Source of the DNA: Escherichia coli | GTDB lineage: Bacteria; Pseudomonadota; Gammaproteobacteria; Enterobacterales; Enterobacteriaceae | Strand: one strand, 5' to 3' | Assembly: GCF_003019035.1 (NCBI RefSeq) | Contig: NZ_CP027447.1 | DNA: 64,000 nucleotides | Program-made: the position numbers and the translations under genes | Part shown: piece by piece, positions 8,322-42,717 of the stretch | Layout of the letters: every line of letters begins with the position of its first letter | How positions within the stretch are numbered: the first letter of the stretch is position 1 | The notes under the pieces: model-generated | Database searches by the model: none | The model's input: only the letters and a program-made list of their open reading frames with translations | Told to the model about the DNA's origin: nothing

Positions 8322-9587
8322 ATGAGCAACAATGAATTCCATCAGCGTCGTCTTTCTGCTACCCCACGCGGGGTTGGCGTGATGTGTAACTTCTTCGCCC
8401 AGTCGGCAGAAAACGCTACGCTGAAGGACGTAGAGGGCAACGAATACATCGATTTCGCCGCAGGCATTGCGGTGCTGAATACCGGGCATCGCCACCCTGA
8501 TCTGGTCGCGGCGGTGGAGCAGCAATTGCAACAGTTTACCCACACGGCGTATCAGATTGTGCCGTACGAAAGCTACGTCACGCTGGCGGAGAAAATTAAC
8601 GCCCTTGCCCCAGTGAGCGGGCAGGCTAAAACCGCATTCTTCACTACCGGCGCGGAAGCGGTGGAAAACGCGGTGAAAATTGCTCGCGCCCATACCGGAC
8701 GACCTGGCGTGATTGCGTTTAGCGGCGGCTTCCACGGTCGTACATATATGACCATGGCGCTGACCGGAAAAGTTGCGCCGTACAAAATCGGCTTCGGCCC
8801 GTTCCCTGGTTCGGTGTATCACGTACCTTATCCGTCAGATTTACACGGCATTTCAACACAGGACTCCCTCGACGCCATCGAACGCTTGTTTAAATCAGAC
8901 ATCGAAGCGAAGCAGGTGGCGGCGATTATTTTCGAACCGGTGCAGGGCGAGGGCGGTTTCAACGTTGCGCCAAAAGAGCTGGTTGCCGCCATTCGCCGCC
9001 TGTGCGACGAGCACGGCATTGTGATGATTGCCGATGAAGTGCAAAGCGGCTTTGCGCGTACCGGTAAACTGTTTGCCATGGATCATTACGTCGATAAGCC
9101 GGATTTAATGACGATGGCGAAAAGCCTCGCGGGCGGGATGCCGCTTTCGGGCGTGGTCGGTAACGCGAATATTATGGACGCGCCCGCGCCGGGCGGGTTG
9201 GGTGGCACCTACGCCGGGAACCCGCTGGCGGTGGCTGCCGCGCACGCGGTGCTCAATATTATCGACAAAGAATCACTCTGCGAACGCGCGAATCAACTGG
9301 GCCAGCGTCTCAAAAACACGTTGATTGATGCCAAAGAAAGCGTTCCGGCCATTGCTGCGGTACGCGGCCTGGGGTCGATGATTGCGGCAGAGTTTAACGA
9401 TCCGCAAACGGGCGAGCCGTCAGCGGCGATTGCACAGAAAATCCAGCAACGCGCGCTGGCGCAGGGGCTGCTTCTGCTGACCTGTGGCGCATACGGCAAC
9501 GTGATTCGTTTCCTGTATCCGCTGACCATCCTGGATGCGCAATTCGATGCGGCAATGAAAATTTTGCAGGATGCGCTGAAAGATTAA
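8322..9587 (+). CDS. puuE: 4-aminobutyrate aminotransferase (PLP-dependent class III)
   Basis: 421 aa; class-III aminotransferase signature incl. MTMAKSLAGG lysine region. Confidence 0.9.
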   Translation: MSNNEFHQRRLSATPRGVGVMCNFFAQSAENATLKDVEGNEYIDFAAGIAVLNTGHRHPDLVAAVEQQLQQFTHTAYQIVPYESYVTLAEKINALAPVSGQAKTAFFTTGAEAVENAVKIARAHTGRPGVIAFSGGFHGRTYMTMALTGKVAPYKIGFGPFPGSVYHVPYPSDLHGISTQDSLDAIERLFKSDIEAKQVAAIIFEPVQGEGGFNVAPKELVAAIRRLCDEHGIVMIADEVQSGFARTGKLFAMDHYVDKPDLMTMAKSLAGGMPLSGVVGNANIMDAPAPGGLGGTYAGNPLAVAAAHAVLNIIDKESLCERANQLGQRLKNTLIDAKESVPAIAAVRGLGSMIAAEFNDPQTGEPSAAIAQKIQQRALAQGLLLLTCGAYGNVIRFLYPLTILDAQFDAAMKILQDALKD

Positions 9588-19386: not shown

Positions 19387-19568
19387 GATCGTCTCTGGTT
19401 CAGGAAGTATTACAGGCAGTGTTGTGCAAATTTTGCGGATTATCAAATCCTTTTCTTCAACGCTATGTTATCGATCTTGTATCACTTTTTTGCCGGAAGT
19501 TGTTTGCATTTCTTTAAGGCGAAACAAATAATTACGCATCAATTTTAATGTCGGTTAGAGGGAAACTT

Positions 19569-21182
19569 ATGAAGCACTCTGTTTCAGTCACGTGTTGTGC
19601 GCTGTTGGTCAGCAGCATTTCTCTTTCGTATGCTGCTGAAGTTCCGAGCGGCACAGTACTGGCAGAGAAGCAGGAGCTGGTGCGCCACATTAAAGATGAG
19701 CCAGCGTCGCTGGATCCCGCTAAAGCCGTGGGCCTGCCGGAGATTCAGGTCATTCGCGATCTGTTTGAAGGACTGGTGAATCAGAACGAGAAAGGGGAGA
19801 TTGTCCCCGGCGTTGCGACTCAGTGGAAAAGTAATGACAACCGTATCTGGACTTTTACCCTGCGCGATAACGCAAAATGGGCGGATGGCACACCGGTAAC
19901 GGCGCAAGATTTTGTCTACAGCTGGCAACGTCTGGTGGACCCGAAAACGCTATCGCCATTTGCATGGTTTGCCGCGCTGGCGGGAATCAACAACGCACAG
20001 GCGATTATTGATGGTAAAGCCGCGCCTGACCAGCTTGGCGTCACCGCAGTTGATGCCCATACTTTGAAAATCCAGCTTGATAAACCATTGCCGTGGTTTG
20101 TGAATTTAACCGCTAACTTTGCCTTCTTCCCGGTGCAAAAAGCCAACGTAGAAAGCAGTAAAGAGTGGACGAAACCCGGAAATCTGATCGGTAATGGCGC
20201 TTATGTTCTTAAAGAGCGCGTAGTCAATGAAAAACTGGTCGTGGTACCGAATACCCATTATTGGGATAACGCCAAAACGGTGCTGCAAAAAGTGACCTTC
20301 CTGCCAATTAATCAGGAATCCGCAGCCACTAAGCGTTATCTCGCGGGGGATATTGATATCACCGAATCCTTCCCGAAAAATATGTATCAGAAGCTGTTGA
20401 AGGATATTCCGGGGCAGGTTTATACGCCGCCGCAGCTCGGGACCTATTATTATGCGTTTAACACGCAAAAAGGGCCGACGGCAGATCAGCGAGTTCGTCT
20501 GGCATTAAGTATGACGATAGATCGCCGCCTGATGACCGAAAAAGTATTAGGGACGGGCGAAAAGCCAGCGTGGCATTTTACACCAGATGTTACTGCAGGA
20601 TTTACGCCGGAACCTTCGCCGTTTGAACAAATGAGTCAGGAAGAACTGAATGCGCAGGCAAAAACTTTGTTGAGCGCAGCTGGTTATGGTCCGCAAAAAC
20701 CGCTGAAGTTGACGCTTTTGTATAACACTTCAGAAAACCATCAAAAAATTGCGATTGCTGTAGCATCGATGTGGAAAAAGAACCTGGGTGTAGATGTTAA
20801 ATTGCAAAACCAGGAATGGAAAACCTATATCGATAGCCGTAACACCGGCAATTTTGATGTTATCCGCGCCTCGTGGGTAGGTGATTATAATGAACCCTCC
20901 ACTTTCCTGACATTATTAACGTCAACGCATTCCGGGAATATTTCACGCTTTAACAATCCGGCATATGACAAAGTTCTGGCCCAGGCATCGACGGAAAATA
21001 CCGTTAAAGCGCGTAATGCCGATTACAACGCGGCAGAAAAAATCCTCATGGAGCAAGCACCGATTGCACCAATTTATCAATATACCAATGGACGATTAAT
21101 CAAGCCGTGGCTGAAAGGTTATCCCATTAATAACCCTGAAGATGTGGCGTACAGTCGGACTATGTATATTGTGAAGCATTGA
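19569..21182 (+). CDS. mppA: periplasmic murein tripeptide-binding protein (ABC SBP family 5)
   Basis: 537 aa from MKHSVSVTCCALLVSSISLSYA (signal peptide); OppA-like. Confidence 0.9.
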   Translation: MKHSVSVTCCALLVSSISLSYAAEVPSGTVLAEKQELVRHIKDEPASLDPAKAVGLPEIQVIRDLFEGLVNQNEKGEIVPGVATQWKSNDNRIWTFTLRDNAKWADGTPVTAQDFVYSWQRLVDPKTLSPFAWFAALAGINNAQAIIDGKAAPDQLGVTAVDAHTLKIQLDKPLPWFVNLTANFAFFPVQKANVESSKEWTKPGNLIGNGAYVLKERVVNEKLVVVPNTHYWDNAKTVLQKVTFLPINQESAATKRYLAGDIDITESFPKNMYQKLLKDIPGQVYTPPQLGTYYYAFNTQKGPTADQRVRLALSMTIDRRLMTEKVLGTGEKPAWHFTPDVTAGFTPEPSPFEQMSQEELNAQAKTLLSAAGYGPQKPLKLTLLYNTSENHQKIAIAVASMWKKNLGVDVKLQNQEWKTYIDSRNTGNFDVIRASWVGDYNEPSTFLTLLTSTHSGNISRFNNPAYDKVLAQASTENTVKARNADYNAAEKILMEQAPIAPIYQYTNGRLIKPWLKGYPINNPEDVAYSRTMYIVKH

Positions 21183-21232
21183 TGTGATGGGAACTGGCGT
21201 TACCCTTGTGGATAACGCCAGTGATGTCTGAT

Positions 21233-22264
21233 TTAGCGACCCTGGTCCGGCGGTGTAATGTTATCCATATACAGCGTCTGGCTGGGGAAGGCAAAGTCCG
21301 CACCGTGTGACTGTACAATATCGATAATCTTCAAATAAACGTCTTGCTGTGCAGCAAGCCACTCAGCCCATACCGTGGTTTTGGTAAAGCAATAAACCAT
21401 AATATTTAATGACGAATCAGCAAACTGGTTGAAATAAACCAGTAAGGTTTGTCGCTGGTCGATGGCCGGGTGATTTTTCAGCATCTCACGTACGGCTTCG
21501 ACAATAACGCCCACTTTTGCCGCATCCTCATAACGTAAACCAATGGTCGTGGTAATGCGCCGGTTGGTCATTCGTCCAGGATTTTCTACGCTGATCGACG
21601 AAAACAGCGAGTTCGGTACGTACAATGGACGATTATCAAAGGTCTTAATTTTGGTAATTCGCCAGCCAATTTCCGCTACTGTACCTTCGATATTTCTGTC
21701 CGGTGAACGGATCCAGTCGCCAATACTGAAAGGACGGTCGAAATAGAGCATAATCCCGGAAAAGAAGTTACTCAGAATATCTTTACCGGCCATACCGACA
21801 GCCAGACCACCAATACCACCAAAGGTCAACAAGCCAGAAAGGCTCATGCCGAAATGTTCGCCATAAAGCAGAACAAGCACCACAATAATGGTGATTTTGA
21901 TAATGCGCGACATGATCCGCGCACTGGTGATATCGCGACCTTTTTTAATCTGCTGTTTTTCAAACTGATTAATCAGCAGAAATAGCTTAATCGTCAGAAT
22001 AACCGCAATCAGGGACGTACAGATAAAATCGATAACGCCTGGGGTGATAAATTTGAGTTTATAGTTTTCTATAACATAGTTAATGATGCTACCAACAGCA
22101 CTAATAATTATGGTGTAGATTAAAAATTGCACCGCATGGAATAAAAATCCTTTTCTTTTACGATTTCCACGGCGAAACCAAAAGCTCATCAGAATCAATG
22201 CTGCGCAGCTACCGAAAATAATGACCAGATTAAGCGCATTATTTGTAAACAGTTCAGCGATCAT
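21233..22264 (-). CDS. ynaI: small-conductance mechanosensitive channel (MscS family)
   Basis: 343 aa; N-terminal TM helices + MscS beta domain. Confidence 0.85.
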
Positions 22265-22507
22265 TGTTTTATCAGGCTCCTCCAGATAATTGTCGTCATG
22301 CCGGAAACCCCTGGCGGGGCTATTTTACCGCGACAATTCATTCAGATCATCAATAGTCAGGGAAGTAAGTAGCAACATTAGCTAACAAATCAATGCATTG
22401 ATTGTAAATCCAGCTAAGAGGTGAGGTTTTCAGAGCAGACAAGAGTGAAATGTCATGGTATTGTTACGTTTAGGTAACAAGAAATTTGTCTGCACAAGGA
22501 TTACATC

Positions 22508-22765
22508 ATGATTATGGCGAAACTGAAGTCAGCGAAAGGGAAGAAATTTCTCTTTGGTTTGTTGGCGGTTTTCATTATTGCGGCGTCGGTTGTGACTCGC
22601 GCGACCATCGGCGGCGTTATAGAACAGTACAATATTCCGCTGTCTGAGTGGACGACATCAATGTATGTGATTCAGTCATCGATGATTTTTGTTTATAGCC
22701 TGGTCTTTACTGTGTTGCTGGCAATCCCGTTGGGAATTTATTTCCTTGGCGGCGAAGAGCAGTAA
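22508..22765 (+). CDS. ynaJ: DUF2534 small inner-membrane protein
   Basis: 85 aa, two TM helices; position between ynaI and uspE. Confidence 0.75.
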   Translation: MIMAKLKSAKGKKFLFGLLAVFIIAASVVTRATIGGVIEQYNIPLSEWTTSMYVIQSSMIFVYSLVFTVLLAIPLGIYFLGGEEQ

Positions 22766-26952: not shown

Positions 26953-28398
26953 TTATTTTAAAGGTGACGGTGTCACGTTTTTCGGGATAGGGCAGTGATA
27001 CGGTTGCGTGTCCGTAACTTGCTGATGCTCTTGTTGGCATTCTTGCAATAGCCCTGAATCAATGAAGAGATTAAGTGTGGTTGCTGCCATAGTTTTCGCC
27101 GCCAGCAGCATTCCTTTATGAGCAATAGATGTTCGCCCCTGGCTAACCAGTTGCCACGTATGTAGCGGGGTACCGACGGCAAAACAGGGGCTGAAACACT
27201 GGGCAACAGGCAGTTTCCAACTGACGTCGCCGACATCAGTCGATGCCGCAAGCACGTTATCGGTGGCGGCATATGGAGCGACTTCATTCGCCAGTACCGT
27301 TTCACGATGACGTAGTGCAAAAGCCTTGCCGTTTTCGCCACCGGTTGCGGCGATATTATTCAGACTGTTTTGCCGATCGTTGGGGGTGAGCGTAGCCTGA
27401 ATTTGTTTCGCAAAAGCCAGTTCTTCGGAGTTCCATTCCGGGGTAGCAAAATGGGATAGGGCTCGGTACATGGCATTTTCTAAGGTGCGATTCGGGAGAT
27501 AACTGGAACAGGCTTTGTCGAAGCGGCATTCAACCGTGGTTTCGGTCATCAATGCCGCACCTTCGGCGATTTTGGCGACCCGATCATAAATATGCTGCAC
27601 ATCGGTCATTTCGGGGGCGCGGATAAGATAAAGCACTTCTGCCTGCGCCTGGACCTCGTTGGGCGAGATCCCGCCGCTATCTGTGATGGCATAGTGTACG
27701 CGCGCTTTTTCAATAATATGTTCGTTGAGGAAGTTGGTGCCAGTGGTCATCAACGTTACGGCATCAAGGGCGCTGCGTCCCAAATGAGGGGAATTCGCGG
27801 CATGTGCTGCGATCCCTTTAAAGCGCCATGATGCCTGAATGTTTGCCAGCGTGCGGGTATTGAACATACCGGCAAAGGCTTCCGGGTGCCATGTGAGTGC
27901 CGCATCCACATCATCAAATACCCCCTCGCGGACCATGAACGTTTTACCCGAGCCGCCTTCTTCGCCAGGACAACCATAAAAGCGCACTGTGCCGCCTTGC
28001 CCATATTGTTCCAGCCATTTCTTGACGGCTATTGCAGCGGCAAAGGCGGCAGTTCCCAGCAAATTGTGTCCGCAACCGTGACCATTTTCACCGGGCGTCG
28101 CGGATGTAGGTTGCGCGCAACCTGCTTGCTGACTTAAACCTGCCAGGGCGTCATATTCCCCCAGCAGGGCGATAACCGGTTTGCCTTGACCAAACGAAGC
28201 AATAAAGGCATTTGGGATATTGCCTACGTTGCGGGTAACGGTGAAGCCTGCAGACTCCAGCGCCGAAGCCAGATGCTCCGCTGACCAGAACTCTTCAAAA
28301 CGTGTTTCTGGATGATCCCAGATTTGATCGGCAATATCGGTATAACGTTGGCGATCGGCTTCAATCGCATCGTCGATAAAACGATAGATTTCCTGCAT
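26953..28398 (-). CDS. abgB: p-aminobenzoyl-glutamate hydrolase subunit B (M20 peptidase family)
   Basis: 481 aa; M20 metal-binding region GCPGEEGGSGK...; start ATG shares nucleotides with the upstream ORF stop (ATGA at 28398). Confidence 0.9.
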   Translation of the reverse strand: MQEIYRFIDDAIEADRQRYTDIADQIWDHPETRFEEFWSAEHLASALESAGFTVTRNVGNIPNAFIASFGQGKPVIALLGEYDALAGLSQQAGCAQPTSATPGENGHGCGHNLLGTAAFAAAIAVKKWLEQYGQGGTVRFYGCPGEEGGSGKTFMVREGVFDDVDAALTWHPEAFAGMFNTRTLANIQASWRFKGIAAHAANSPHLGRSALDAVTLMTTGTNFLNEHIIEKARVHYAITDSGGISPNEVQAQAEVLYLIRAPEMTDVQHIYDRVAKIAEGAALMTETTVECRFDKACSSYLPNRTLENAMYRALSHFATPEWNSEELAFAKQIQATLTPNDRQNSLNNIAATGGENGKAFALRHRETVLANEVAPYAATDNVLAASTDVGDVSWKLPVAQCFSPCFAVGTPLHTWQLVSQGRTSIAHKGMLLAAKTMAATTLNLFIDSGLLQECQQEHQQVTDTQPYHCPIPKNVTPSPLK

Positions 28399-29301
28399 CA
28401 GATACCTCGCGTCCAGGGAAAATTGAGCGCGGTGCGCGCCAGCGTTTCGACGGCAATAGCGAGAACCTGCTCGTCAAAATCGAATTTTTCATTGTGATGA
28501 CCTGCCGCCAGCTGTGTGCCAAATACCATGTAGGAGGCTTGCCCTTGATGTCGCTGCACGCGGGCCATCATTAATGTGGCATCTTCGGAACCCGCAGGCG
28601 CTTCAACACGTTCAATGGCCTGATTGACCCCCGCGACCTGAGCCGCCTGGATTTGCAACCATGCGACCCATTGCGGCGAAGGAGAACTGGCGGTAGCTGC
28701 ACCCATCAGACGAGTTTCAACGCCGACACCATACATGGTTGCTGCGCCCTGAATCGCTTGTTGTGCACGGTCAAAAACATATTGATTAATGACGTCGCTG
28801 GCCCCGCGTGTTTCCACTTTCAGCAACGCTGAGGCGGGAACAACATTACGACCGCTTCCTGCCTGCATAACGCCCACGTTTACTCTGGAAGCGCCTTCGC
28901 TGTGCGGGGCGATGGCTGACATCCTGCTCTTCACTGAAATCCAGCGCGTCCATATCGACACGGAAAGCCATCACCGGACCGGGGCGACCGGTATCCAGGG
29001 TAGCGACGATGCCAGTGAAACCGCCTTCAAAAGCCGCAATCCATTGTTCTAGCGCCCCCTGTTGACGAGCGCGCTCGAATTCGCGTTGTAGAGTGAATTC
29101 ATCAGGTAATCCCATCCGGCTACTTTCATTAACGACTTCGCGGCCCAGCGCCAGTGAATAACCGAGCTGGTGCAATTCTTCCGCAACAACGGTGGCAGTG
29201 CGGAATTCCACCCAGCCAGACTCTGCATAGTGGTGAAAATCACGTCGCCAGTACGATAATTTTGGGGCAAGCGAATTAATAAATTGATTCAAAGACTCCA
29301 T
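28398..29301 (-). pseudogene. abgA: abgA (M20D amidohydrolase subunit A) disrupted by internal deletion and frameshift
   Basis: N-terminal 5' part (MESLNQFINSLAPKL...DMDALDFSEEQDVSH) and C-terminal part (AIAPHSEGASRVNVGVMQAGSGRNVVP...FPWTRGI) lie in different frames; the central metal-binding segment expected for M20D enzymes is absent; total span 904 bp versus about 1.3 kb expected. Confidence 0.75.
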
Positions 29302-29476
29302 AACCTTTCCCGTCATCAGTAAAAAGTGTGACCCGGTTCACGTAGCGATAGTTTTTACTTATCACTAACTGATTTTTCACAGTTTTAACCGTTCATAAAT
29401 TACCCTGACACAATCATCTGCATTAAAGTAGATGCCAGTTTCTTTGGTCTGATAAATAACGGTTATCGGTGGCGTC

Positions 29477-30385
29477 ATGGCTTTTCAGGTAAAAATTCAT
29501 CAAATTCGGGCTTTTGTTGAAGTGGCTCGTCAGGGCAGCATTCGCGGAGCGAGCCGAATGTTGAATATGTCGCAACCGGCACTGAGTCAATCTATTCAGG
29601 AACTGGAAGAAGGGTTGGCGGCACAACTCTTTTTTCGCCGTAGTAAAGGCGTGACGTTAACTGATGCCGGTGAAAGTTTTTATCAGCACGCCAGTCTTAT
29701 TCTTGAAGAGCTGCGCGCAGCGCAAGAGGATATTCGCCAACGACAAGGGCAACTGGCAGGGCAAATTAATATCGGCATGGGGGCCAGTATTTCCCGCAGT
29801 CTGATGCCAGCTGTCATATCTCGTTTTCATCAGCAGCATCCGCAGGTAAAAGTACGCATTATGGAAGGGCAACTGGTGTCGATGATTAATGAATTGCGCC
29901 AGAGAGAACTGGATTTCACCATCAATACCTATTATCAGGGACCCTACGACCACGAATTTACTTTTGAGAAATTACTGGAAAAGCAATTCGCGATCTTTTG
30001 CCGCCCGGGACATCCCGCCATTGGTGCCCGTTCGATCAAACAGTTACTGGACTACAGCTGGACAATGCCGACGCCACACGGCAGCTACTACAAACAGTTG
30101 AGTGAATTGCTTGACGATCAGGCGCAAACGCCACAGGTCGGCGTAGTCTGCGAGACGTTCTCAGCCTGTATCAGTCTGGTGGCAAAAAGCGATTTTCTCA
30201 GCATACTACCTGAAGAAATGGGCTGCGATCCCTTGCACGGACAGGGGCTGGTGATGTTGCCGGTTAGCGAAATTTTACCGAAAGCGACCTATTATTTGAT
30301 TCAGCGGCGTGATAGTCGCCAGACACCACTGACCGCGTCATTAATCACGCAATTTCGGCGAGAATGCGGCTATCTGCAAAGTTAA
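29477..30385 (+). CDS. abgR: LysR-type transcriptional regulator of the abg operon
   Basis: 302 aa; N-terminal LysR HTH (SIRGASRMLNMSQPALSQSIQELE); divergent from abgA. Confidence 0.9.
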   Translation: MAFQVKIHQIRAFVEVARQGSIRGASRMLNMSQPALSQSIQELEEGLAAQLFFRRSKGVTLTDAGESFYQHASLILEELRAAQEDIRQRQGQLAGQINIGMGASISRSLMPAVISRFHQQHPQVKVRIMEGQLVSMINELRQRELDFTINTYYQGPYDHEFTFEKLLEKQFAIFCRPGHPAIGARSIKQLLDYSWTMPTPHGSYYKQLSELLDDQAQTPQVGVVCETFSACISLVAKSDFLSILPEEMGCDPLHGQGLVMLPVSEILPKATYYLIQRRDSRQTPLTASLITQFRRECGYLQS

Positions 30386-30393
30386 AACTGCAT

Positions 30394-30488
30394 AAAAAAA
30401 ATAGAGTCTGTCGACATCCGCCAGACTCTACAGTACACACAGCAGTGCATCCGCGTCTTAAATCCGGCATGGTCTCCTCTGCGCCGGT
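30394..30488 (-). ncRNA. mcaS: McaS (IsrA) small regulatory RNA
   Basis: minus-strand sequence ACCGGCGCAGAGGAGACAATGCCGGATTTAAGACGCGGATGCACTGCTGTGTGTACTGTAGAGTCTGGCGGATGTCGACAGACTCTATTTTTTTT recognised, ending in hairpin + U-run. Confidence 0.85.
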
Positions 30489-30715
30489 GACTGTGTTATA
30501 ACGGTTTTAACCTTTAGTTGCCAATTTTCTTCAGTGACAGATTTCACGAAAATATAAGTTACATTATTAATATAGTGAATGAATAATCATGCATAAGCAT
30601 TTTGCTTAAAATATCGGCAACATTTGGAACTTATTACTGGAAATTTGGGTAATACGTTGTTGGACCAGCCCGGTCTGGTTATCATATCGCGCTCTTAATT
30701 GCGGGAGGATGTAAC

Positions 30716-31279
30716 ATGAACCTTGACGACAAATCGCTGTTTCTTGACGCCATGGAAGATGTCCAGCCGCTGAAACGTGCTACAGATGTCCACTGGCATC
30801 CAACGCGTAACCAACGTGCGCCGCAGCGTATCGACACGCTGCAACTTGATAATTTCCTCACCACTGGATTTCTCGACATCATCCCGCTAACTCAGCCGCT
30901 GGAGTTTCGGCGGGAAGGGTTGCAACATGGGGTGCTGGATAAGCTGCGCAGTGGTAAATACCCGCAACAGGCGAGCCTGAATCTTTTGCGCCAGCCGGTG
31001 GAAGAGTGCCGCAAAATGGTGTTCAGTTTCATTCAACAAGCCCTGGCGGATGGTTTGCGTAATGTGCTGATTATTCATGGTAAAGGGCGGGAAGATAAAT
31101 CGCATGCCAATATTGTCCGCAGCTATGTGGCGCGCTGGTTGACCGAATTTGATGATGTCCAAGCATATTGTACCGCGCTACCGCATCATGGCGGCAGCGG
31201 GGCGTGTTACGTCGCACTACGTAAAACGGCACAGGCAAAGCAAGAAAACTGGGAGCGCCACGCTAAGCGCAGTCGTTGA
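30716..31279 (+). CDS. smrA: Smr-domain DNA endonuclease
   Basis: 187 aa; Smr domain (LIIHGKGRE...). Confidence 0.8.
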   Translation: MNLDDKSLFLDAMEDVQPLKRATDVHWHPTRNQRAPQRIDTLQLDNFLTTGFLDIIPLTQPLEFRREGLQHGVLDKLRSGKYPQQASLNLLRQPVEECRKMVFSFIQQALADGLRNVLIIHGKGREDKSHANIVRSYVARWLTEFDDVQAYCTALPHHGGSGACYVALRKTAQAKQENWERHAKRSR

Positions 31280-31299
31280 TCTCGAGACGCATCCGCGGC

Positions 31300-32532
31300 T
31301 TATGCCGCCAGCACGCGGTTGCGTCCATCATTTTTCGCCCGATACAAAGCATCATCAACGCGTTTAAACAGCTCATCGATGCTTTCATTTCCTTCGTGAT
31401 GCGCCACACCAATGCTGACGGTAAAGCGTGGTAAGCCCGAAATACTCACTTTTGCCACGCTTACGCGGATAGTTTCAGCCAGCGAAAGCGCGGTATCCAG
31501 TGGGGTTCTTGGTAGCAATAAGACAAACTCTTCGCCTCCCCAACGAAACACCAAATCGCCTTTGCGAGCGCAACTTTCGAGGGTGCGGGCGAGGGCGCAT
31601 AACACCTCATCACCTTTAGAATGCCCATAGAGATCGTTAATGTGTTTAAAACGATCGGTGTCGATGAGCAACAAGCTGTAATCCTGAGCGATGGCGAGGT
31701 GCTGCATTTGGCCTGGCTCGGTAATGTGATAAAACTGTCGCCGATTCAGTAATCCGGTCATCGCGTCATGGTGGGCAGCATGTTCCAGCTGCTCCTCCAG
31801 CCGTTTTTGCTCAGTAATATCATGCACAATACATAACATGAGCTTGTCGCCATAAATTTCAATCGGACCGGCATAGGTCTGCACATGACGAGTCGAACCA
31901 TCCGCCAGTTTATGAACAAAATTCAAAGGCTTATGGCCACCGGGTAAATGCGAAATTTCATGCATGATAGGCATGACGCGTCGCCCGAGCATATTTATTT
32001 CCCAGGTATGTTTCTGGCACATCGTTTCATGGTTATAGCCATAGAAATTGAGCGCGGCGAGGTTAGCATCAACGATTTGGCCATCTCGTGAGGGGTCAAT
32101 CAACAACATTGGTGCAGAGTTAGTCAGAAAAAAGCGCGCATAAAAACCTTGTTTTTTGCGCTGATAATTTGCCGAGCGACTGGCTTTTAAACCCAGCGTT
32201 GCCGGTGCTTCGATACCTTCGAAAATAATCACCGGTTCTGCTTCTGTCAGCTTTCGCAAAACAAGCCGACAGCTCAATGCTGTTTCCTCTTCATTGCGCT
32301 GAACGGTGAGGATTTCGATAATATCGTGTTGGTTTTGCAGATCGGAGAGGTATTTCGGCAGTTCTTTTTGTGAGGAGACGGAATAGGGACCGGTTCGTAG
32401 TTGACTAAACGTGAGGTTTTGCATCAACAGTCGCGCCGCGCTATTGGCATAAATTAACTGTTCCTCAAAGGGCGAAACGATCCAGACAGGACTGGTGAGT
32501 AAGTCCAGGGTATTGAAGTTGTGCGTAATCAT
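31300..32532 (-). CDS. dgcM: diguanylate cyclase (PAS-PAS-GGDEF)
   Basis: 410 aa from MITHNFNTLDLL; GGEEF active-site motif (RWGGEEFVLLL). Confidence 0.9.
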   Translation of the reverse strand: MITHNFNTLDLLTSPVWIVSPFEEQLIYANSAARLLMQNLTFSQLRTGPYSVSSQKELPKYLSDLQNQHDIIEILTVQRNEEETALSCRLVLRKLTEAEPVIIFEGIEAPATLGLKASRSANYQRKKQGFYARFFLTNSAPMLLIDPSRDGQIVDANLAALNFYGYNHETMCQKHTWEINMLGRRVMPIMHEISHLPGGHKPLNFVHKLADGSTRHVQTYAGPIEIYGDKLMLCIVHDITEQKRLEEQLEHAAHHDAMTGLLNRRQFYHITEPGQMQHLAIAQDYSLLLIDTDRFKHINDLYGHSKGDEVLCALARTLESCARKGDLVFRWGGEEFVLLLPRTPLDTALSLAETIRVSVAKVSISGLPRFTVSIGVAHHEGNESIDELFKRVDDALYRAKNDGRNRVLAA

Positions 32533-32765
32533 TGAGATCCCGTTATTTTTATCAATTTTTGTTGCTATCCGATCGCAAAAAAGCCACGTCATATGATCAG
32601 ATAATTCTGATAATGATAGACGCTATTTAACACTTCACACGGTTTGTATATGGAAAAGCATTTTGCTTTTTGTATTCAATTTAGACAGAATTTTATTAAT
32701 CATTTCAGGGTAATGGGGTGATGAGATGTTGCGTAACAGGGCCAGAAGGCTAGACTACAAAATAA

Positions 32766-33770
<1,005 letters not shown>

Positions 33771-33816
33771 CAAAAGCAATTTCTCCGGGATTCTGTATAC
33801 AAAAACGCCGTAAAGT

Positions 33817-33830
33817 TTGAGCGAAGTCAA
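33817..33830 (+). promoter_or_regulatory. FNR box of the fnrS promoter
   Basis: TTGAGCGAAGTCAA (TTGAT-N4-ATCAA-like) centred about 42 bp upstream of the FnrS 5' end (class II position). Confidence 0.65.
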
Positions 33831-33865
33831 TAAACTCCCTACCTATTCAGGGCAATATCTCTCTC

Positions 33866-33987
33866 GCAGGTGAATGCAACGTCAAGCGATGGGCGTTGCG
33901 CTCCATATTGTCTTACTTCCTTTTTTGAATTACTGCATAGCACAATTGATTCGTACGACGCCGACTTTGATGAGTCGGCTTTTTTTT
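33866..33987 (+). ncRNA. fnrS: FnrS small regulatory RNA
   Basis: GCAGGTGAATGCAACGTCAAGCGATGGGCG...GCCGACTTTGATGAGTCGGCTTTTTTT recognised; terminal hairpin + T7 run. Confidence 0.85.
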
Positions 33988-34044
33988 GCCTGTTATTTAT
34001 CAGCGTCTACCCTTTAAGAGTCCACCCAATGACCGGAGGGAAAT

Positions 34045-34218
34045 ATGACGACACTTATTTATTTGCAAATTCCTGTCCCTGAACCGATTCCTGGCGATCC
34101 TGTTCCAGTGCCCGATCCGATCCCTCGCCCGCAACCCATGCCTGACCCACCACCCGATGAAGAACCGATTAAATTGTCGCATCGTGAGCGTAGATCTGCG
34201 AGGATACGCGCCTGCTAA
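34045..34218 (+). CDS. unannotated 57-aa proline-rich small ORF (hypothetical)
   Basis: ATG preceded by GGAGGG SD at 5-nt spacing; MTTLIYLQIPVPEPIPGDPVPVPDPIPRPQPMPDPPPDEEPIKLSHRERRSARIRAC; below the 60-aa cut-off of the ORF track. Confidence 0.4.
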   Translation: MTTLIYLQIPVPEPIPGDPVPVPDPIPRPQPMPDPPPDEEPIKLSHRERRSARIRAC

Positions 34219-34247
34219 CTTTGCGTCGATGACCACGAGAATAGATT

Positions 34248-35621
34248 GTGACCGCTTTTTCTACCCTGAATGTTTTGCCTCCCGCCCAACTCACGAACCT
34301 TAATGAGTTGGGTTATTTAACCATGACGCTGGTGCAGGCCGCCGCGCTTCCGGCGATCCTTGCCGGAAAAGATGTTCGCGTGCAGGCGAAAACCGGCAGC
34401 GGCAAAACGGCGGCTTTTGGCCTCGGGCTGCTACAGAAAATTGATGCGTCGCTATTTCAGACCCAGGCTTTAGTGCTGTGTCCTACGCGTGAACTGGCGG
34501 ATCAGGTGGCAGGTGAATTGCGTCGGCTGGCGCGTTTTCTGCCAAATACCAAAATTTTGACGTTGTGCGGTGGTCAACCGTTCGGTATGCAGCGTGATTC
34601 GTTGCAACATGCGCCGCATATTATCGTGGCAACGCCGGGTCGTTTGCTGGATCACTTGCAAAAAGGCACGGTATCACTGGATGCGCTGAATACTTTGGTG
34701 ATGGATGAGGCCGACCGCATGCTGGATATGGGATTTAGCGATGCCATTGATGATGTCATCCGTTTTGCGCCTGCATCTCGACAGACGCTTTTGTTTTCGG
34801 CAACCTGGCCGGAAGCCATCACCGCAATCAGCGGACGAGTGCAACGCGATCCTTTAGCGATTGAAATTGACTCAACAGATGCTCTGCCACCTATTGAACA
34901 ACAATTTTATGAGACATCCAGCAAAGGCAAAATTCCGCTGTTGCAACGGTTATTAAGTTTGCATCAGCCATCCTCTTGCGTGGTGTTTTGCAATACCAAA
35001 AAAGATTGTCAGGCTGTCTGCGACGCGCTGAATGACATAGGGCAAAGTGCATTGTCGTTACATGGCGATCTGGAGCAACGTGACCGCGATCAGACCCTGG
35101 TACGTTTTGCTAACGGTAGCGCTCGTGTGCTGGTCGCGACGGATGTTGCTGCGCGTGGTCTTGATATTAAATCGCTTGAGCTGGTAGTGAACTTTGAACT
35201 GGCGTGGGACCCTGAAGTTCATGTACATCGCATCGGTCGTACAGCGCGTGCAGGAAATAGCGGTCTGGCGATCAGTTTCTGTGCCCCGGAAGAAGCACAG
35301 CGGGCCAATATCATTTCTGACATGTTGCAGATAAAACTTAACTGGCAAACGCCGCCAGTTAATAGTTCCATTGTGCCGCTGGAAGCAGAAATGGCAACGT
35401 TATGTATCGATGGCGGGAAAAAAGCCAAAATGCGCCCGGGTGATGTATTAGGTGCGCTGACAGGAGACATCGGGCTTGATGGCGCAGATATTGGCAAAAT
35501 CGCCGTGCATCCGGCGCATGTCTATGTCGCGGTGCGTCAGGCTGTTGCTCATAAAGCATGGAAACAGTTACAGGGCGGGAAGATTAAAGGAAAAACGTGC
35601 CGGGTGCGGTTATTAAAATAA
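34248..35621 (+). CDS. dbpA: ATP-dependent DEAD-box RNA helicase (23S rRNA-specific)
   Basis: 457 aa, GTG start; Walker A AKTGSGKT, DEAD box VMDEADRML, SAT, HRIGRTAR. Confidence 0.93.
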   Translation: MTAFSTLNVLPPAQLTNLNELGYLTMTLVQAAALPAILAGKDVRVQAKTGSGKTAAFGLGLLQKIDASLFQTQALVLCPTRELADQVAGELRRLARFLPNTKILTLCGGQPFGMQRDSLQHAPHIIVATPGRLLDHLQKGTVSLDALNTLVMDEADRMLDMGFSDAIDDVIRFAPASRQTLLFSATWPEAITAISGRVQRDPLAIEIDSTDALPPIEQQFYETSSKGKIPLLQRLLSLHQPSSCVVFCNTKKDCQAVCDALNDIGQSALSLHGDLEQRDRDQTLVRFANGSARVLVATDVAARGLDIKSLELVVNFELAWDPEVHVHRIGRTARAGNSGLAISFCAPEEAQRANIISDMLQIKLNWQTPPVNSSIVPLEAEMATLCIDGGKKAKMRPGDVLGALTGDIGLDGADIGKIAVHPAHVYVAVRQAVAHKAWKQLQGGKIKGKTCRVRLLK

Positions 35622-35669
35622 TGAAATGTTGAATTGCCGGGTGCAAGAGTAAACATCTTATTCGGGATT

Positions 35670-35748
35670 GCCGGATGCGACGCTGGCCGCGTCTTCTCCG
35701 GCCTCCATAAGAGTAGCCCGATAAGCTTGCGCATCGGGCGCTATCCGG
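35670..35748. repeat. REP/BIME cluster
   Basis: two REP-like palindromes (GCCGGATGCGACGCTGGCCGCGTCTTCTCCGGCC; GCCCGATAAGCTTGCGCATCGGGCGCTATCCGGG) between convergent dbpA and ttcA. Confidence 0.6.
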
Positions 35749-35749
35749 G

Positions 35750-36685
35750 TTATTTCACTTCAACCACATTCAGTCGTAACTCATCCAACTGATTTTCATC
35801 TTCTTCAGGCTGCCAACCCGCCGGTTGTAGAGGGATCTCTTCGCGATCAAACGCCAGATCACCCCCGTTAACCACTTCAGAACCGTGGGTAATGCCTTTG
35901 AAATCGAACAGGTTGGTATCGCACAGATGCGACGGCACCACATTCTGCATCGCGCTGAACATCGTCTCGATACGCCCCGGATAACGTTTATCCCAGTCAC
36001 GCAACATGTCAGCAATCACCTGACGTTGCAGGTTAGGCTGTGAACCGCACAGGTTGCACGGAATAATCGGGAACGCTTTTGCATCGGCAAAGCGCTGAAT
36101 ATCTTTCTCGCGGCAGTAGGCCAGCGGACGAATAACGATATGTTTGCCATCATCGCTCATCAGTTTCGGAGGCATACCTTTCATCTTGCCGCCGTAGAAC
36201 ATATTTAAGAACAGCGTTTGCAGGATATCGTCACGATGGTGACCCAACGCGATCTTCGTCGCCCCCAGTTCCGTTGCGGTGCGATAAAGGATACCGCGAC
36301 GAAGACGAGAACACAGTGAGCAAGTGGTTTTGCCCTCCGGAATCTTCTCTTTCACGATACCGTAAGTGTTCTCTTCCACAATCTTGTACTCAACGCCCAG
36401 CTTTTCAAGATACTCGGGCAGAACGTGTTCCGGGAAGCCCGGTTGTTTTTGATCGAGGTTAACAGCCACCAGCGAAAAATTGATTGGCGCGCTTTGCTGC
36501 AAATTGCGCAGAATTTCCAGCATGGTATAGCTGTCTTTACCCCCGGAGAGGCAAACCATGATGCGATCGCCTTCTTCAATCATATTGAAGTCAGCAATGG
36601 CTTCGCCCACGTTACGACGCAGACGTTTTTGTAATTTGTTCAGGTTGTATTGTTCTTTCTTACTAATTTCTTGATTTTGCGACAT
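35750..36685 (-). CDS. ttcA: tRNA 2-thiocytidine(32) synthetase (PP-loop ATPase)
   Basis: 311 aa; PP-loop SGGKDS; CxxC pairs; appears intact. Confidence 0.92.
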
Positions 36686-36826
36686 TTAAAAGCGACTCAA
36701 TTCGTTATATGGCATCAGAAGAGTATGCGTCATGCCGGAACGCCCAGCATAAGAAATCTGATATAAAAACTGTGGCGTGTATGGTACGGATTAGAGGGGA
36801 AAATGTCAGCACATTTGCGAAATGAA

Positions 36827-36853
36827 TCAAAAAGCCCGCAGCAATGTGCGGGC
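36827..36853 (-). terminator. intrinsic terminator after uspF
   Basis: minus-strand hairpin GCCCGCACATTGCTGCGGGC followed by TTTTTGA. Confidence 0.7.
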
Positions 36854-36860
36854 GTTAGTG

Positions 36861-37376
<516 letters not shown>

Positions 37377-37402
37377 TTAGATCAAAGGAGGAAGAATAAG
37401 CA

Positions 37403-37427
37403 GAAAAAGCCCGCCATAACAGCGGGC
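37403..37427 (-). terminator. intrinsic terminator after ompN
   Basis: minus-strand hairpin GCCCGCTGTTATGGCGGGC followed by TTTTTCTG. Confidence 0.65.
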
Positions 37428-37435
37428 AGGAGGAT

Positions 37436-38554
37436 TTAGAACTGATAAACCAGACCTAAAGCGACAATATCATCGGTAGAGATGCCGTTGGCAGCGTAGA
37501 AGCTGTCATCTTCATCCAACAGGTTGATTTTATAGTCAACGTAGGTGGACATATTTTTGTTGAAATAGTAAGTCGCGCCAACATCGGCGTATTTAACCAG
37601 ATCTTTATCACCGTCGGTACCGACCAAATCCTTGCCTTTAGACATCAGGAAAGAGACTGCCGGACGCAGCCCAAAATCGAACTGATACTGCGCAGTAACT
37701 TCAAAGTTCTGGGTTTTGTTGGCAATCGTATTTGTTGAATCACCGTAAGGTGTCATGTTACGCGTTTCAGAATACATGGTCGCCAGGTAGATATTGTTAG
37801 CATCGTATTTTGCCCCGGCAGTCCAGGCGTCAGCCTTATCGCCTTTTGCGGTAGAGAATTCAGCCTGCTGGTTAGTGCGATCGGAGCTGGTATAGGCGGC
37901 ACCAAAACTCATGCCCATACCTAAGTCGTAGGTAGTGGAGATGCCAAAACCGTCGCCATTGGCGTTCTTAATGTTTCGATCACCACCGTTTGCGGTACCT
38001 TCTTGCTCATGGGTGACCTGGTTTTCATTCGCGCCCTGGTACTGTAACGCAAAATTCAGACCATCAACCAGACCGAAGAAATCAGTATTACGATAGGTTG
38101 CTACGCCATTGGCTCGACCGGTCATATAGTTATCGGCTTTGGTATAAGAGTCACCACCGAATTCCGGTAGCATATCGGTCCAGCCTTCGATGTCGTACAT
38201 TACGCCATAATTACGACCATAGTCGAATGAACCCAGGTCACCAAATTTCAGACCGGCAAAAGCAAGACGAGTCCAGGAATCACCTTTATCACCTTCAGAG
38301 CCATTAGCCTGCACGTTATATTCCCACTGGCCATACCCAACCAGTTGATCCGTGATTTGCGTTTCACCCTTAAAACCAAAACGCACGTAAGTTTGATCAC
38401 CATCACTATTGGTATTATCAGAAAAATAATGCAGGCCATCAACTTTGCCATACAGATCTAATTTGTTGCCGTCTTTATTATAAACTTCGGCTGCATGTGC
38501 AGCACCTGCGGCGAGCAGGGCAGGAATTAAAAGTGCCAGTACTTTGCTTTTCAT
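37436..38554 (-). CDS. ompN: outer-membrane general porin (OmpC/OmpF family)
   Basis: 372 aa with signal peptide [21 protein letters not shown] and C-terminal ...GLVYQF beta-barrel signal. Confidence 0.88.
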
Positions 38555-38781
38555 TGAATAAATCCTTTAGTTATTTTATTTGCCTTTTATCCCCATTTCG
38601 GGGAGTGAAAACATCCTAAAGGAGAAGTTCAGTTAGCCGATAAATATCATTTGTTACGCCTTAAGTAAAACCTTAATCAAATAATTCCTCTGAAATGATA
38701 ATAAGTCTGGTGAATGTATCGAAGATAATACATACAAAATAAAAATTATACTTTTAATTTGCTATACGTTATTCTTCGCGG

Positions 38782-38891
38782 GTTATATGCCTTTATTGTC
38801 ACAGATTTTATTTTCTGTTGGGCCATTGCATTGCCACTGATTTTCCAACATATAAAAAGACAAGCCCGAACAGTCGTCCGGGCTTTTTTTT
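38782..38891 (+). ncRNA. micC: MicC small regulatory RNA (represses ompC translation)
   Basis: GTTATATGCCTTTATTGTCACAGATTTTATTTTCTGTTGGGCCATTGCATTGCCACTGATTTTCCAACATATAAAAAGACAAGCCCGAACAGTCGTCCGGGCTTTTTTTT recognised, in the ompN-ydbK gap. Confidence 0.85.
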
Positions 38892-38919
38892 AGAATTGGA
38901 TAATCCTTATCCAGAGCAT

Positions 38920-41900
38920 TTAATCGGTGTTGCTTTTTTCCGCTTTTCCGGCCATTTGTGCCAGGAAGTCATAGCGTTTTTGCAAATCAGCTGCAGCATC
39001 TTTCCATAACTGTTCTGCCACTTCTGGCTGCTGCGAATTCAGACGACGGAAACGCTGCTCGTGAAGTAACGTTTCTTCCAGTGCTTCTGACGGCGGGCGT
39101 GAATCCAGCGCCAGCGGCAGTTTGCCTTCATCGGCACGACGAGGATCGAAGCGATATAGCGGCCAGAAGCCGGTAGCAGTGAGTTGGCGCATCTGGTCGT
39201 GGCTGAGAGCCAGATCGTAACCATGCTCTTCACACGGGCTATAAGCGATGATCAGCGATGGCCCCGGATACGCTTCCGCTTCCTGAATCGCTTTCACCGT
39301 CTGGTTCAGCTGTGCGCCGAGAGAAATCTGCGCCACATAAACATGACCGTACATCATCATACTGACGCCAAGATCTTTACGCGCTTTACGTTTGCCGTGC
39401 TCGCCAAACTTAGTTACTGCACCCAGCGGTGTCGCTTTCGACGCCTGGCCACCGGTGTTGGAATAGCATTGCGTATCCAGCACCAGAATGTTGACGTTTT
39501 CCGTCAAACTCAATACATGATCCAGACCACCAAAGCCGATATCGTAAGCCCAGCCGTCACCACCAATCAGCCAGATTGATTTTTCCACCAGAGCATCTGC
39601 GTCACGTAGCAGTTCATGTGCTTCGGCAACATCGTTGAGTTGCTGGCGTAAAGCTGCAACCTGTTCACGACGAATCTCTGGCGTAGCGTCTGATTTCAAC
39701 GCAGTCAGTAATTCCGCCGGGATTTTATCGGCAAATTGATCCAGCAGACGCAGCACGCGGACACGGTGTTGATCGACCGTCAGGCGGAAACCCAGGCCAA
39801 ATTCGGCGTTATCTTCAAACAGCGAGTTCGCCCATGCCGGCCCGCGACCGTTGGCATCGGTAGTATACGGTGTAGAGGGCAGGTTACCGCCATAAATTGA
39901 AGAACATCCAGTGGCGTTAGCGATCAACATCCGGTCGCCATACAGCTGAGTCAGCAATTTAATATACGGCGTCTCGCCACAACCGGAGCAAGCACCGGAA
40001 TATTCAAACAGCGGTGTAATCAGCTGTGATGTACGAATATCAATACGTTCCAGTTTGCTACGGTCGATTTCTGGCAGGTTGAGGAAGAAATCGTAATTGA
40101 TTTTCTCTTCTTCGACATGTTCCAGCCGCGACATCATATTGATGGCTTTAATCTCTGGATTCTGACGGTCTTTCGCCGGGCAAACTTCGACGCACAGGTT
40201 ACAACCGGTGCAATCTTCCGGAGCCACCTGCAAGACATATTTCTGCCCGCGCATATCACGCGATTTCACATCCAGCGAATGCAGGCTGGCAGGGGCGTTT
40301 TCCATCGCTTCAGGCGGTACCACTTTTGCGCGAATAGCTGAGTGTGGGCAAGCAGCGACGCAGTGGTTACATTGGGTACAGAGTTCCTCTTTCCAGATGG
40401 GGATCTCTTCGGCGATATTGCGTTTTTCCCAGCGCGTGGTGCCCATCGGCCAGGTGCCGTCTGGCGGCAGCGCCGAAACGGGGAGGGCATCACCAAGCCC
40501 GGCGAGCATCGCCGCGGTTACGGTTTTCACGAAATCAGGGGCGGCATCGGAAACCACTGGCGGTCGATTGGCGCTGTGCGGATTTACTGGTTGCAGCGGA
40601 ACTTCTTCTACGGATTCACGTGCCAGCGCCAGAGCCTGCCAGTTGCGTTCCACCAGATCCTGACCTTTGCTACTGTAACTTTTGGCAATCGCACCCTGCA
40701 ATTCTGCGAGGGCGCTATCGCCAGGCAGAATTTGCGTAAGATGGAAAAAAGCCATCTGCATGACGGTATTAATACGGGCCGCCAGGCCACATTCGCGGGC
40801 GATTTTCGCCGCGTTAATCACATAGAAGCGCGCTTTTTTCTGGTTTAACACGGCCTGAACTTCCTGCGGCAAGCGCGACCATACTTCATCTGCGCTGTAC
40901 GGCGTGTTGAGCAGGAAAATGCCGCCAGGTTTTAAACGTTCAGCCATCTGATATTTATCGATAAACTGCAACTGGTGGCAGCCAACAAAATCAGCCTGGG
41001 AAATCAGATAAGCGGAACGAATCGGCTGTTCGCTCACGCGAAGGTGAGAAACCGTCAGGCCGCCCGCCTTTTTGGAGTCGTAAACAAAATAGCCCTGTGC
41101 GTACCACGGCGTGGAATTACCGATAATCTTGATATTGTTTTTGGTCGCGGAAACGCTGCCATCACTACCAAGGCCATAAAACAAGGCTTCAAGTTTCGCC
41201 GAGTTTGGCAGGGTGTTTTCCGGCAACGGCAGTGACAGATTGGTCACATCATCGTAAATACCAACCGTAAAGCGCGCTTTCGGTTTAGCCGCGTTGAGCT
41301 CGGCAAATACCGCCAGTACACAGTCCGGGCCAAATTCTTTGGATGAAAGACCATAGCGCCCACCAATGACACGGGGCAGGGTTTCGCGCTCGCCATTATT
41401 AAAGGCTTCTGCCAGTGCGGTCATCACATCCAGGTACAGGGGTTCCGCTTGCGCACCTGGCTCTTTGGTGCGATCCAGCACCGCCACTGTCCGAACAGAG
41501 TCCGGCAACGCTTGCAGTAAGTGTTTGGCGGAGAAGGGGCGGTACAGGCGAACTTTCAGCACGCCGACTTTTTCGCCACGGGTTAGCAATTCATCAACCA
41601 CTTCTTCACAGGTGCCAATGGCTGAGCCCATCAGGATAATCACCCGTTCCGCTTGCGGATGCCCATAATACTCAAACGGCTGATACTGACGACCTGTCGC
41701 GGCAGCGAAATCATTCATCGCCTGTTCAACATGGTCATAGACCGCGTTGTACCAGGGGTTGGTGGCTTCGCGAGACTGGAAATAAGTGTCAGGATTGGCG
41801 GACGTACCGCGGATCACCGGATGTTCCGGGTTGAGCGCCCGGGCGCGATGAGCATCAATTTCGGCCTGCGGCATGAGATCAAGAATAGTGTCATCGGCCA

Positions 41901-42444
41901 GCGGGACAATTTTATTGATTTCGTGGGACGTGCGGAAACCATCAAAGAAATGAATAAATGGCACGCGGCTTTTCAGCGTCGCGATGTGCGAAATGAGAGC
42001 AAAGTCTTGCGCTTCCTGGACGTTTGCCGCACACAACATCGCGCAACCCGTCTGGCGCACCGCCATAACGTCGGAATGATCGCCAAAAATAGAGAGTGCA
42101 TGTGTGGCAACGGTACGTGCCGCTACATGCAGGACAAACGGTGTGAGTTCGCCTGCCAGTTTGTACAGCGTCGGGATCATCAGCAGCAAACCCTGCGATG
42201 ACGTAAACGATGTTGAAAGGGCACCCGTCTGCAAAGCGCCATGCACGGTAGCGATAGCACCCGCTTCCGACTGCATTTCAACCACGCGTGGTGTGTCTCC
42301 CCAAACGTTCTTCAAGCCGTTTCCGGCCCAGGCATCAGCCTGTTCTGCCATCGTGGAACTGGGGGTAATAGGGTAGATGGCGATAACTTCACTGGTGCGA
42401 AACGCCACCGAAGCAACCGCGCCATTACCGTCAATAGTAATCAT
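38920..42444 (-). CDS. ydbK: pyruvate:flavodoxin/ferredoxin oxidoreductase (PFOR)
   Basis: 1174 aa; two 4Fe-4S ferredoxin motifs (CTQCNHCVAACP, CTGCNLCVEVCP), TPP-binding GGDGWAYDIG. Confidence 0.95.
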   Translation of the reverse strand: MITIDGNGAVASVAFRTSEVIAIYPITPSSTMAEQADAWAGNGLKNVWGDTPRVVEMQSEAGAIATVHGALQTGALSTSFTSSQGLLLMIPTLYKLAGELTPFVLHVAARTVATHALSIFGDHSDVMAVRQTGCAMLCAANVQEAQDFALISHIATLKSRVPFIHFFDGFRTSHEINKIVPLADDTILDLMPQAEIDAHRARALNPEHPVIRGTSANPDTYFQSREATNPWYNAVYDHVEQAMNDFAAATGRQYQPFEYYGHPQAERVIILMGSAIGTCEEVVDELLTRGEKVGVLKVRLYRPFSAKHLLQALPDSVRTVAVLDRTKEPGAQAEPLYLDVMTALAEAFNNGERETLPRVIGGRYGLSSKEFGPDCVLAVFAELNAAKPKARFTVGIYDDVTNLSLPLPENTLPNSAKLEALFYGLGSDGSVSATKNNIKIIGNSTPWYAQGYFVYDSKKAGGLTVSHLRVSEQPIRSAYLISQADFVGCHQLQFIDKYQMAERLKPGGIFLLNTPYSADEVWSRLPQEVQAVLNQKKARFYVINAAKIARECGLAARINTVMQMAFFHLTQILPGDSALAELQGAIAKSYSSKGQDLVERNWQALALARESVEEVPLQPVNPHSANRPPVVSDAAPDFVKTVTAAMLAGLGDALPVSALPPDGTWPMGTTRWEKRNIAEEIPIWKEELCTQCNHCVAACPHSAIRAKVVPPEAMENAPASLHSLDVKSRDMRGQKYVLQVAPEDCTGCNLCVEVCPAKDRQNPEIKAINMMSRLEHVEEEKINYDFFLNLPEIDRSKLERIDIRTSQLITPLFEYSGACSGCGETPYIKLLTQLYGDRMLIANATGCSSIYGGNLPSTPYTTDANGRGPAWANSLFEDNAEFGLGFRLTVDQHRVRVLRLLDQFADKIPAELLTALKSDATPEIRREQVAALRQQLNDVAEAHELLRDADALVEKSIWLIGGDGWAYDIGFGGLDHVLSLTENVNILVLDTQCYSNTGGQASKATPLGAVTKFGEHGKRKARKDLGVSMMMYGHVYVAQISLGAQLNQTVKAIQEAEAYPGPSLIIAYSPCEEHGYDLALSHDQMRQLTATGFWPLYRFDPRRADEGKLPLALDSRPPSEALEETLLHEQRFRRLNSQQPEVAEQLWKDAAADLQKRYDFLAQMAGKAEKSNTD

Positions 42445-42717
42445 ATGACACCCTTACATTGCGCAAATGAGGGGCGCACGAAATTGCTGCGCGCCCAGTA
42501 GTAATCCTTCAATTTTAGCAAATGGCTTTCTTCTGCATTTTCGCTTTTGTGTCCCCCACATCAGCGTAATGAATGTTTTGATCAAACAGAGGGCAAAAAA
42601 ATAGCCATAAAAAAGTAAAAATGCGGGGCAACGCGCAGGACAGCTCTCGACGCCGCCCTCTGTGCTGCCTATTATTTATGGCGGTGTCGTTTGGCTTGAA
42701 GATCAGAGGAAGAAAAG

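Follow-up and report, generated by a model that had tools for sequence, protein, structure and literature searches.

A probable unoccupied attachment site for Rac-type prophages in the 5′ coding region of intact ttcA in a natural Escherichia coli strain

The gene ttcA, which encodes tRNA 2-thiocytidine(32) synthetase, lies on the minus strand at 35750..36685 of a 64,000-nucleotide stretch of Escherichia coli DNA (contig NZ_CP027447.1), hereafter called the window. It consists of one open reading frame of 311 amino acids. On its left is dbpA (34248..35621, plus strand). On its right are uspF, encoding universal stress protein F of 144 amino acids (36861..37295), ompN (37436..38554) and ydbK/nifJ (38920..42444), all on the minus strand. 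TtcA belongs to the NCBIfam equivalog NF007972; the match scored 513.6 bits (cut-off 272) and covered residues 3-290. UspF matched the equivalog NF011581 (303.3 bits, cut-off 166), and the equivalent gene is also named uspF in the annotation of strain SCU-301. In the translation of ttcA, the PP-loop SGGKDS occupies residues 47-52, and two Cys-x-x-Cys motifs, CSLC and CNLC, occupy residues 122-125 and 210-213. The cysteines of these motifs have a functional role in TtcA. An earlier note on this DNA described ttcA as full length with an intact PP-loop, and the single reading frame, the presence of SGGKDS and the family score all agree with that description.

The distance between ttcA and uspF is exactly 175 bp (36686..36860), and a terminator scan found the hairpin of the uspF intrinsic terminator in it, as the same note had stated. 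The hairpin, GCCCGCACATTGCTGCGGGC followed by TTTTTG, is on the minus strand at 36834..36853, directly after the uspF stop codon. From the attachment core described below through the uspF stop, the sole difference from the chromosomal flank to the right of the Rac prophage in K-12 was one base in an A-run. Because the interval differs from that flank by one base only, we regard it as the native uspF-ttcA intergenic region (minus strand), free of phage remnants. We also searched 36560..36900 against 50,697 phage records in a 'distant' mode (E ≤ 1). The intergenic part matched only prophage-derived records that carry host ttcA/uspF flanks, namely Rac-SA53, SPF_0923 and vB_EcoS-683R6. Of the records matched, that of phage PHB10 alone carried no host flanking genes, and its match covered just 36636..36678, i.e. 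the core and the start of ttcA. A homology search for prophage remnants had been proposed earlier as the test that could refute an empty locus; it revealed none in 36686..36860. The native ttcA promoter and 5′ untranslated region probably lie within this interval, in the range 36686..36833. The only sigma-70-like match there, running from 36809 to 36781, scored 9/12, which was no better than shuffled controls. An Rfam scan and a tRNA scan found nothing in the interval, and no tRNA genes were detected.

The Rac attachment core was found inside ttcA. The 26-bp sequence TTGTTCAGGTTGTATTGTTCTTTCTT occurs at 36636..36661 (no strand assigned) as a single exact copy in the window, where zero copies are expected by chance. 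All 26 positions are identical to the K-12 attL (1411899-1411924) and attR (1434959-1434984), whose core copies are spaced 23,060 bp apart. In the minus-strand reading, the core comprises the codons for K9 to N16 of TtcA and two bases of codon 17, and so spans codons 9-17. The earlier note had placed the attachment region in the intergenic interval 36686..36860 and had proposed a search for the att core there; the only copy in the window lies outside that interval instead, 25-50 bp to its left. The annotation is thereby improved, in that the attachment site is relocated from the intergenic spacer to ttcA codons 9-17.

In K-12 MG1655 the site is occupied. The cryptic prophage Rac, which the earlier note had described as an element of about 23 kb at this locus, is indeed annotated there at 1411899..1434958, with ttcA overlapping its left end. 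According to the K-12 annotation, intR and xisR lie just within the left end of Rac, and a 51-bp ttcC pseudogene lies at its right end, ahead of uspF. When the window was compared by blastn with the K-12 stretch containing Rac, 29736..36678 aligned to the left of Rac and 36636..42660 to the right of it. Only these two chromosomal flanks matched, with no window match to Rac DNA itself, so the alignment across ttcA and uspF that had been suggested as a check indicates that the site is unoccupied. In a three-way alignment, the attB of the window corresponded to the left arm of K-12 attL, the core and the right arm of attR.

The alignment also accounts for the N-terminus of TtcA. The window and K-12 proteins are identical at 306 of 311 residues, and four of the five differences are residues 2, 3, 6 and 8. 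The window protein starts with MSQNQEIS (codons 1-8, 36662..36685, minus strand), whereas that of K-12 starts with MQENQQIT. To the right of the core, the window sequence equals K-12 attR, i.e. the ttcC′ stub, and K-12 attL runs into a look-alike of the ttcA start. K-12 TtcA thus begins with MQENQQIT because Rac supplies its first eight codons. Liu et al. (2015, PMC4632033) located attL within the ttcA coding region and reported that Rac excision alters four N-terminal residues. Precise excision in K-12 re-forms exactly the N-terminus of the protein termed TtcA′, which is also carried by Rac-free E. coli and Shigella and which those authors consider ancient (PMC4632033). In their K-12 assay, TtcA′ fared worse with carbenicillin (PMC4632033). 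The four changes between the window and K-12 are exactly those reported for Rac-free strains and excised K-12 in that study. The window shares with the K-12 Rac att sites and the delta-rac TtcA′ (PMC4632033) the core, its position in codons 9-17 and the MSQNQEIS start, and differs by one base in the right flank. K-12 itself has a 23,060-bp prophage and a phage-supplied TtcA N-terminus, whereas the window has an empty site and 2-5% nucleotide divergence. The N-terminus of TtcA (MSQNQEIS versus MQENQQIT) is a quick marker for site occupancy.

We surveyed mobile DNA over the window at both the DNA and the protein level. A tblastn search with 24 Rac proteins (IS5 InsH included), the IS2 and IS30 transposases and the PHB10 integrase gave no match to any part of the window (E ≤ 1e-3). 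Between 34000 and 39500, we found no att-type direct repeats, only short repeats at chance level. The PGAP annotation of SCU-301 likewise lists no transposase, integrase or phage gene over the span. The earlier statement that integrase, phage genes and att-like direct repeats are missing is in line with these results. So is the statement that IS5 is missing between ynaI and ynaJ. In K-12, CTAA flanks IS5F on both sides; in the window, a single CTAA is present at 22382..22385 (no strand assigned), where the blast join overlaps by 4 bp, and it represents the unoccupied target of IS5F. The window was also said to be entirely free of mobile DNA. For prophages and insertion sequences this holds, but REP-type repeats are present. 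The REP-type motif GCCGGATGCGRCG occurs five times (at 256, 9684, 18221, 35670 and 54334) against 0.29 expected, and the copy at 35670 lies in the dbpA-ttcA spacer.

Because the core is single-copy and identical to that of K-12, is bordered by native chromosomal DNA on both sides, and occurs in a window with no homology to Rac, insertion sequences or integrase, we interpret 36636..36661 as an unoccupied attB for Rac-type lambdoid prophages. It falls within the 5′ part of ttcA, which is intact, in an E. coli that is natural and not K-12. On the basis of sequence comparison, we consider this reading about 95% probable.

The phage partners of this site gave a consistent picture. The attP rebuilt from the ends of the K-12 prophage matches Rac-like records in which intR adjoins the junction, as it does in Rac-SA53 and vB_EcoS-683R6. 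The att annotation of Rac-SA53 (KU052037.1) covers the same 26 positions, adjacent to intR and ydaQ, and its attL, TTGTTCAGGTTGTATATCTCTTTCTT, differs from the window core at 3 of the 26. In PHB10 (MK524177.1), attP consists of a core with 24 of 26 positions matched, followed by a surrogate ttcA 5′ end, beside the gene for a 412-aa integrase. It is the phage partner rather than a chromosomal site, and its arms beyond the core are unrelated to the window. It illustrates the kind of sequence with which the attB of the window would recombine, and cognate attP sites in phages are thus found beside genes for tyrosine integrases. Over all five aligned att sequences, TTCAGGTTGTAT and TCTTTCTT are invariant, and strand exchange probably takes place within TTCAGGTTGTAT/TCTTTCTT. 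The prophages CP-933R (EDL933), Sp10 (Sakai) and Rac-SA53 share the ttcA site with the window, but the strains that carry them are lysogens.

To see how common the empty site is, a 301-bp probe (36500..36800) was compared with 5426 complete E. coli genomes, of which 5410 were matched. The sequence ran uninterrupted across the site in 2488 of the 5426 (~46%), and most interrupted genomes break at probe position 179, which corresponds to window position 36678. With a 1801-bp probe, 2487 genomes were uninterrupted. The empty ttcA site is therefore ordinary, being nearly as frequent as the occupied one, and the empty state has already been documented (Liu et al. 2015, PMC4632033). The frequency of about 46% is useful as a baseline for complete E. 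coli genomes. This strain seems to carry ttcA in its ancestral form and to offer phages of the Rac type a free landing site, which would not surprise a specialist.

From the literature and our own comparisons, a likely course of integration can be proposed. A Rac-type tyrosine integrase (IntR) would recombine phage attP with the core at 36636..36661. After integration, the native promoter and codons 1-17 would end up at a distance of about 23 kb or more, left behind as the ttcC′ stub. The prophage would then provide a surrogate promoter and 5′ end (MQENQQIT...), so that ttcA would stay expressed with four residues changed. In the empty state found in the window, transcription of ttcA presumably starts from a promoter of its own within the 175 bp, and phages with an integrase of the Rac type should still be able to lysogenize the strain. 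Attachment sites within genes are familiar from e14 in icd and from many phages that target tRNA genes, where a duplicate carried by attP keeps the target gene working after insertion. Phages like e14 restore the 3′ end of the gene; the Rac type differs in that it replaces the 5′ end, and hence the promoter too.

An empty site could also result from genome engineering. The window has neither Rac nor IS5F, and the IS2 and IS30 copies that MG1655 has in ydbA are missing too, which is the pattern that would be expected of an MDS-type K-12 derivative from which Rac and insertion sequences had been deleted. However, identity to MG1655 is only 94.7-98.3%, and three K-12 chromosomal clusters are missing as well, namely ycjM-ycjW/ompG, ymjC-ycjY-pgrR and feaR-tynA-paa (feaR-paaY). 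OmpN is only 82% identical to its K-12 counterpart, and its divergence accounts for the 94.7% DNA identity of the ompN block. The window is collinear over its full length with SCU-301, a commensal isolated from a rectal swab of a healthy student, at 99.98-99.995% identity. As identity is at least 99.98% to SCU-301 and 94.7-98.3% to K-12, we conclude that the window comes from a natural lineage and not from a K-12 derivative, and the comparison with MDS-type reduced genomes that had been suggested is inapplicable. The near-100% identity to MG1655 that such a derivative should show outside its deletions was not found, and this origin, which the sequence divergence rules out, has a negligible probability.

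It might also be suspected that the site only looks empty. A decayed prophage remnant could be concealed in the 175 bp, and some strains do have one here. In E. coli S88 (NC_011742.1), the locus and its flanking genes are as in the window, but a decayed insert of about 2.3 kb (20186..22513 of the S88 segment compared) lies between ttcA and uspF. In it are fragments of an integrase (231 bp) and of DUF1627, along with a metal ABC permease that is frameshifted; the window is without any of these. S88 also lacks attR and the left part of the spacer, with no alignment to window positions of about 36632..36789, and represents a third state of the locus, after the empty and the occupied ones. The S88 remnant does not align with this part of the window, whose interval, as described above, is one base away from the K-12 flank, has no match in a true phage and gave an empty tblastn result. 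A hidden remnant is thus very improbable. We think it equally hard to believe that a real prophage was collapsed out of the sequence during assembly. Matching native flanks border a perfect native attB at the junction, which is also present in the 2488 complete genomes counted above. In a finished assembly, a repeat of 26 bp could hardly cause such a collapse, and SCU-301 independently has the same structure. The history of the empty site is a different matter, since a site once occupied and then restored by precise excision through integrase and excisionase would carry the same sequence as one never occupied, conservative site-specific excision being scarless. In K-12, precise excision of Rac does restore exactly this N-terminus of TtcA′ (PMC4632033). 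The site is interrupted in more than half of the E. coli genomes, which implies that gain and loss are probably frequent. On the other side, Liu et al. view the MSQNQEIS N-terminus as the ancient form (PMC4632033). In a sampled ranking, no occupied genome had a left flank more than about 98.2% identical to the window and none belonged to the same clone, which argues weakly against a recent occupant. We consider former occupancy unlikely. If precise excision were recent, and if TtcA′ with its native promoter and N-terminus gave a selectable phenotype unlike that of the phage-supplied allele (as the carbenicillin-related difference reported in K-12 might suggest), occupancy of the ttcA site might even switch tRNA thiolation at the level of the population, beyond its use as a phage landing pad. 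We regard this idea as a long shot.

Some other differences between the window, K-12 and SCU-301 were observed. The points at which the K-12 clusters are lost are 12892 (pspE/ycjX), 19482..19511 (mpaA/mppA) and 47851 (after ydbL). Strain S88 retains ycjY and pgrR. In OmpN, which has 372 residues against 377 in K-12, the substitutions and indels are clustered, and PGAP names the product of the corresponding SCU-301 gene OmpC. The small RNAs FnrS (33866..33983), MicC (38779..38899) and McaS (30393..30488) were found at their expected chromosomal positions with scores above the Rfam gathering thresholds.

Several genes were broken or differed in their reading frames. The ydbA-like autotransporter gene (48316..54278) is divided into two open reading frames of 948 and 1058 amino acids. 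The split results from a poly-G run at about 51025..51030 that is one G shorter than in SCU-301, whose gene forms a single coding sequence of 1987 amino acids. Slipped-strand variation or a sequencing error could explain it, or the gene may be a pseudogene. In K-12, ydbA is broken differently, by IS2 and IS30. The gene abgA (about 28398..29316) is broken into two reading-frame pieces; about 400 bp of the K-12 sequence is gone, with the junction at 28906..28913, and the SCU-301 annotation describes it as a frameshifted pseudogene of an M20-family hydrolase. According to the same annotation, ynbD (61175..62467) has an internal stop. The gene puuE (8322..9587) is an intact reading frame of 421 amino acids in the window and is frameshifted in SCU-301, the two sequences differing by 1 bp (G) at 9190.
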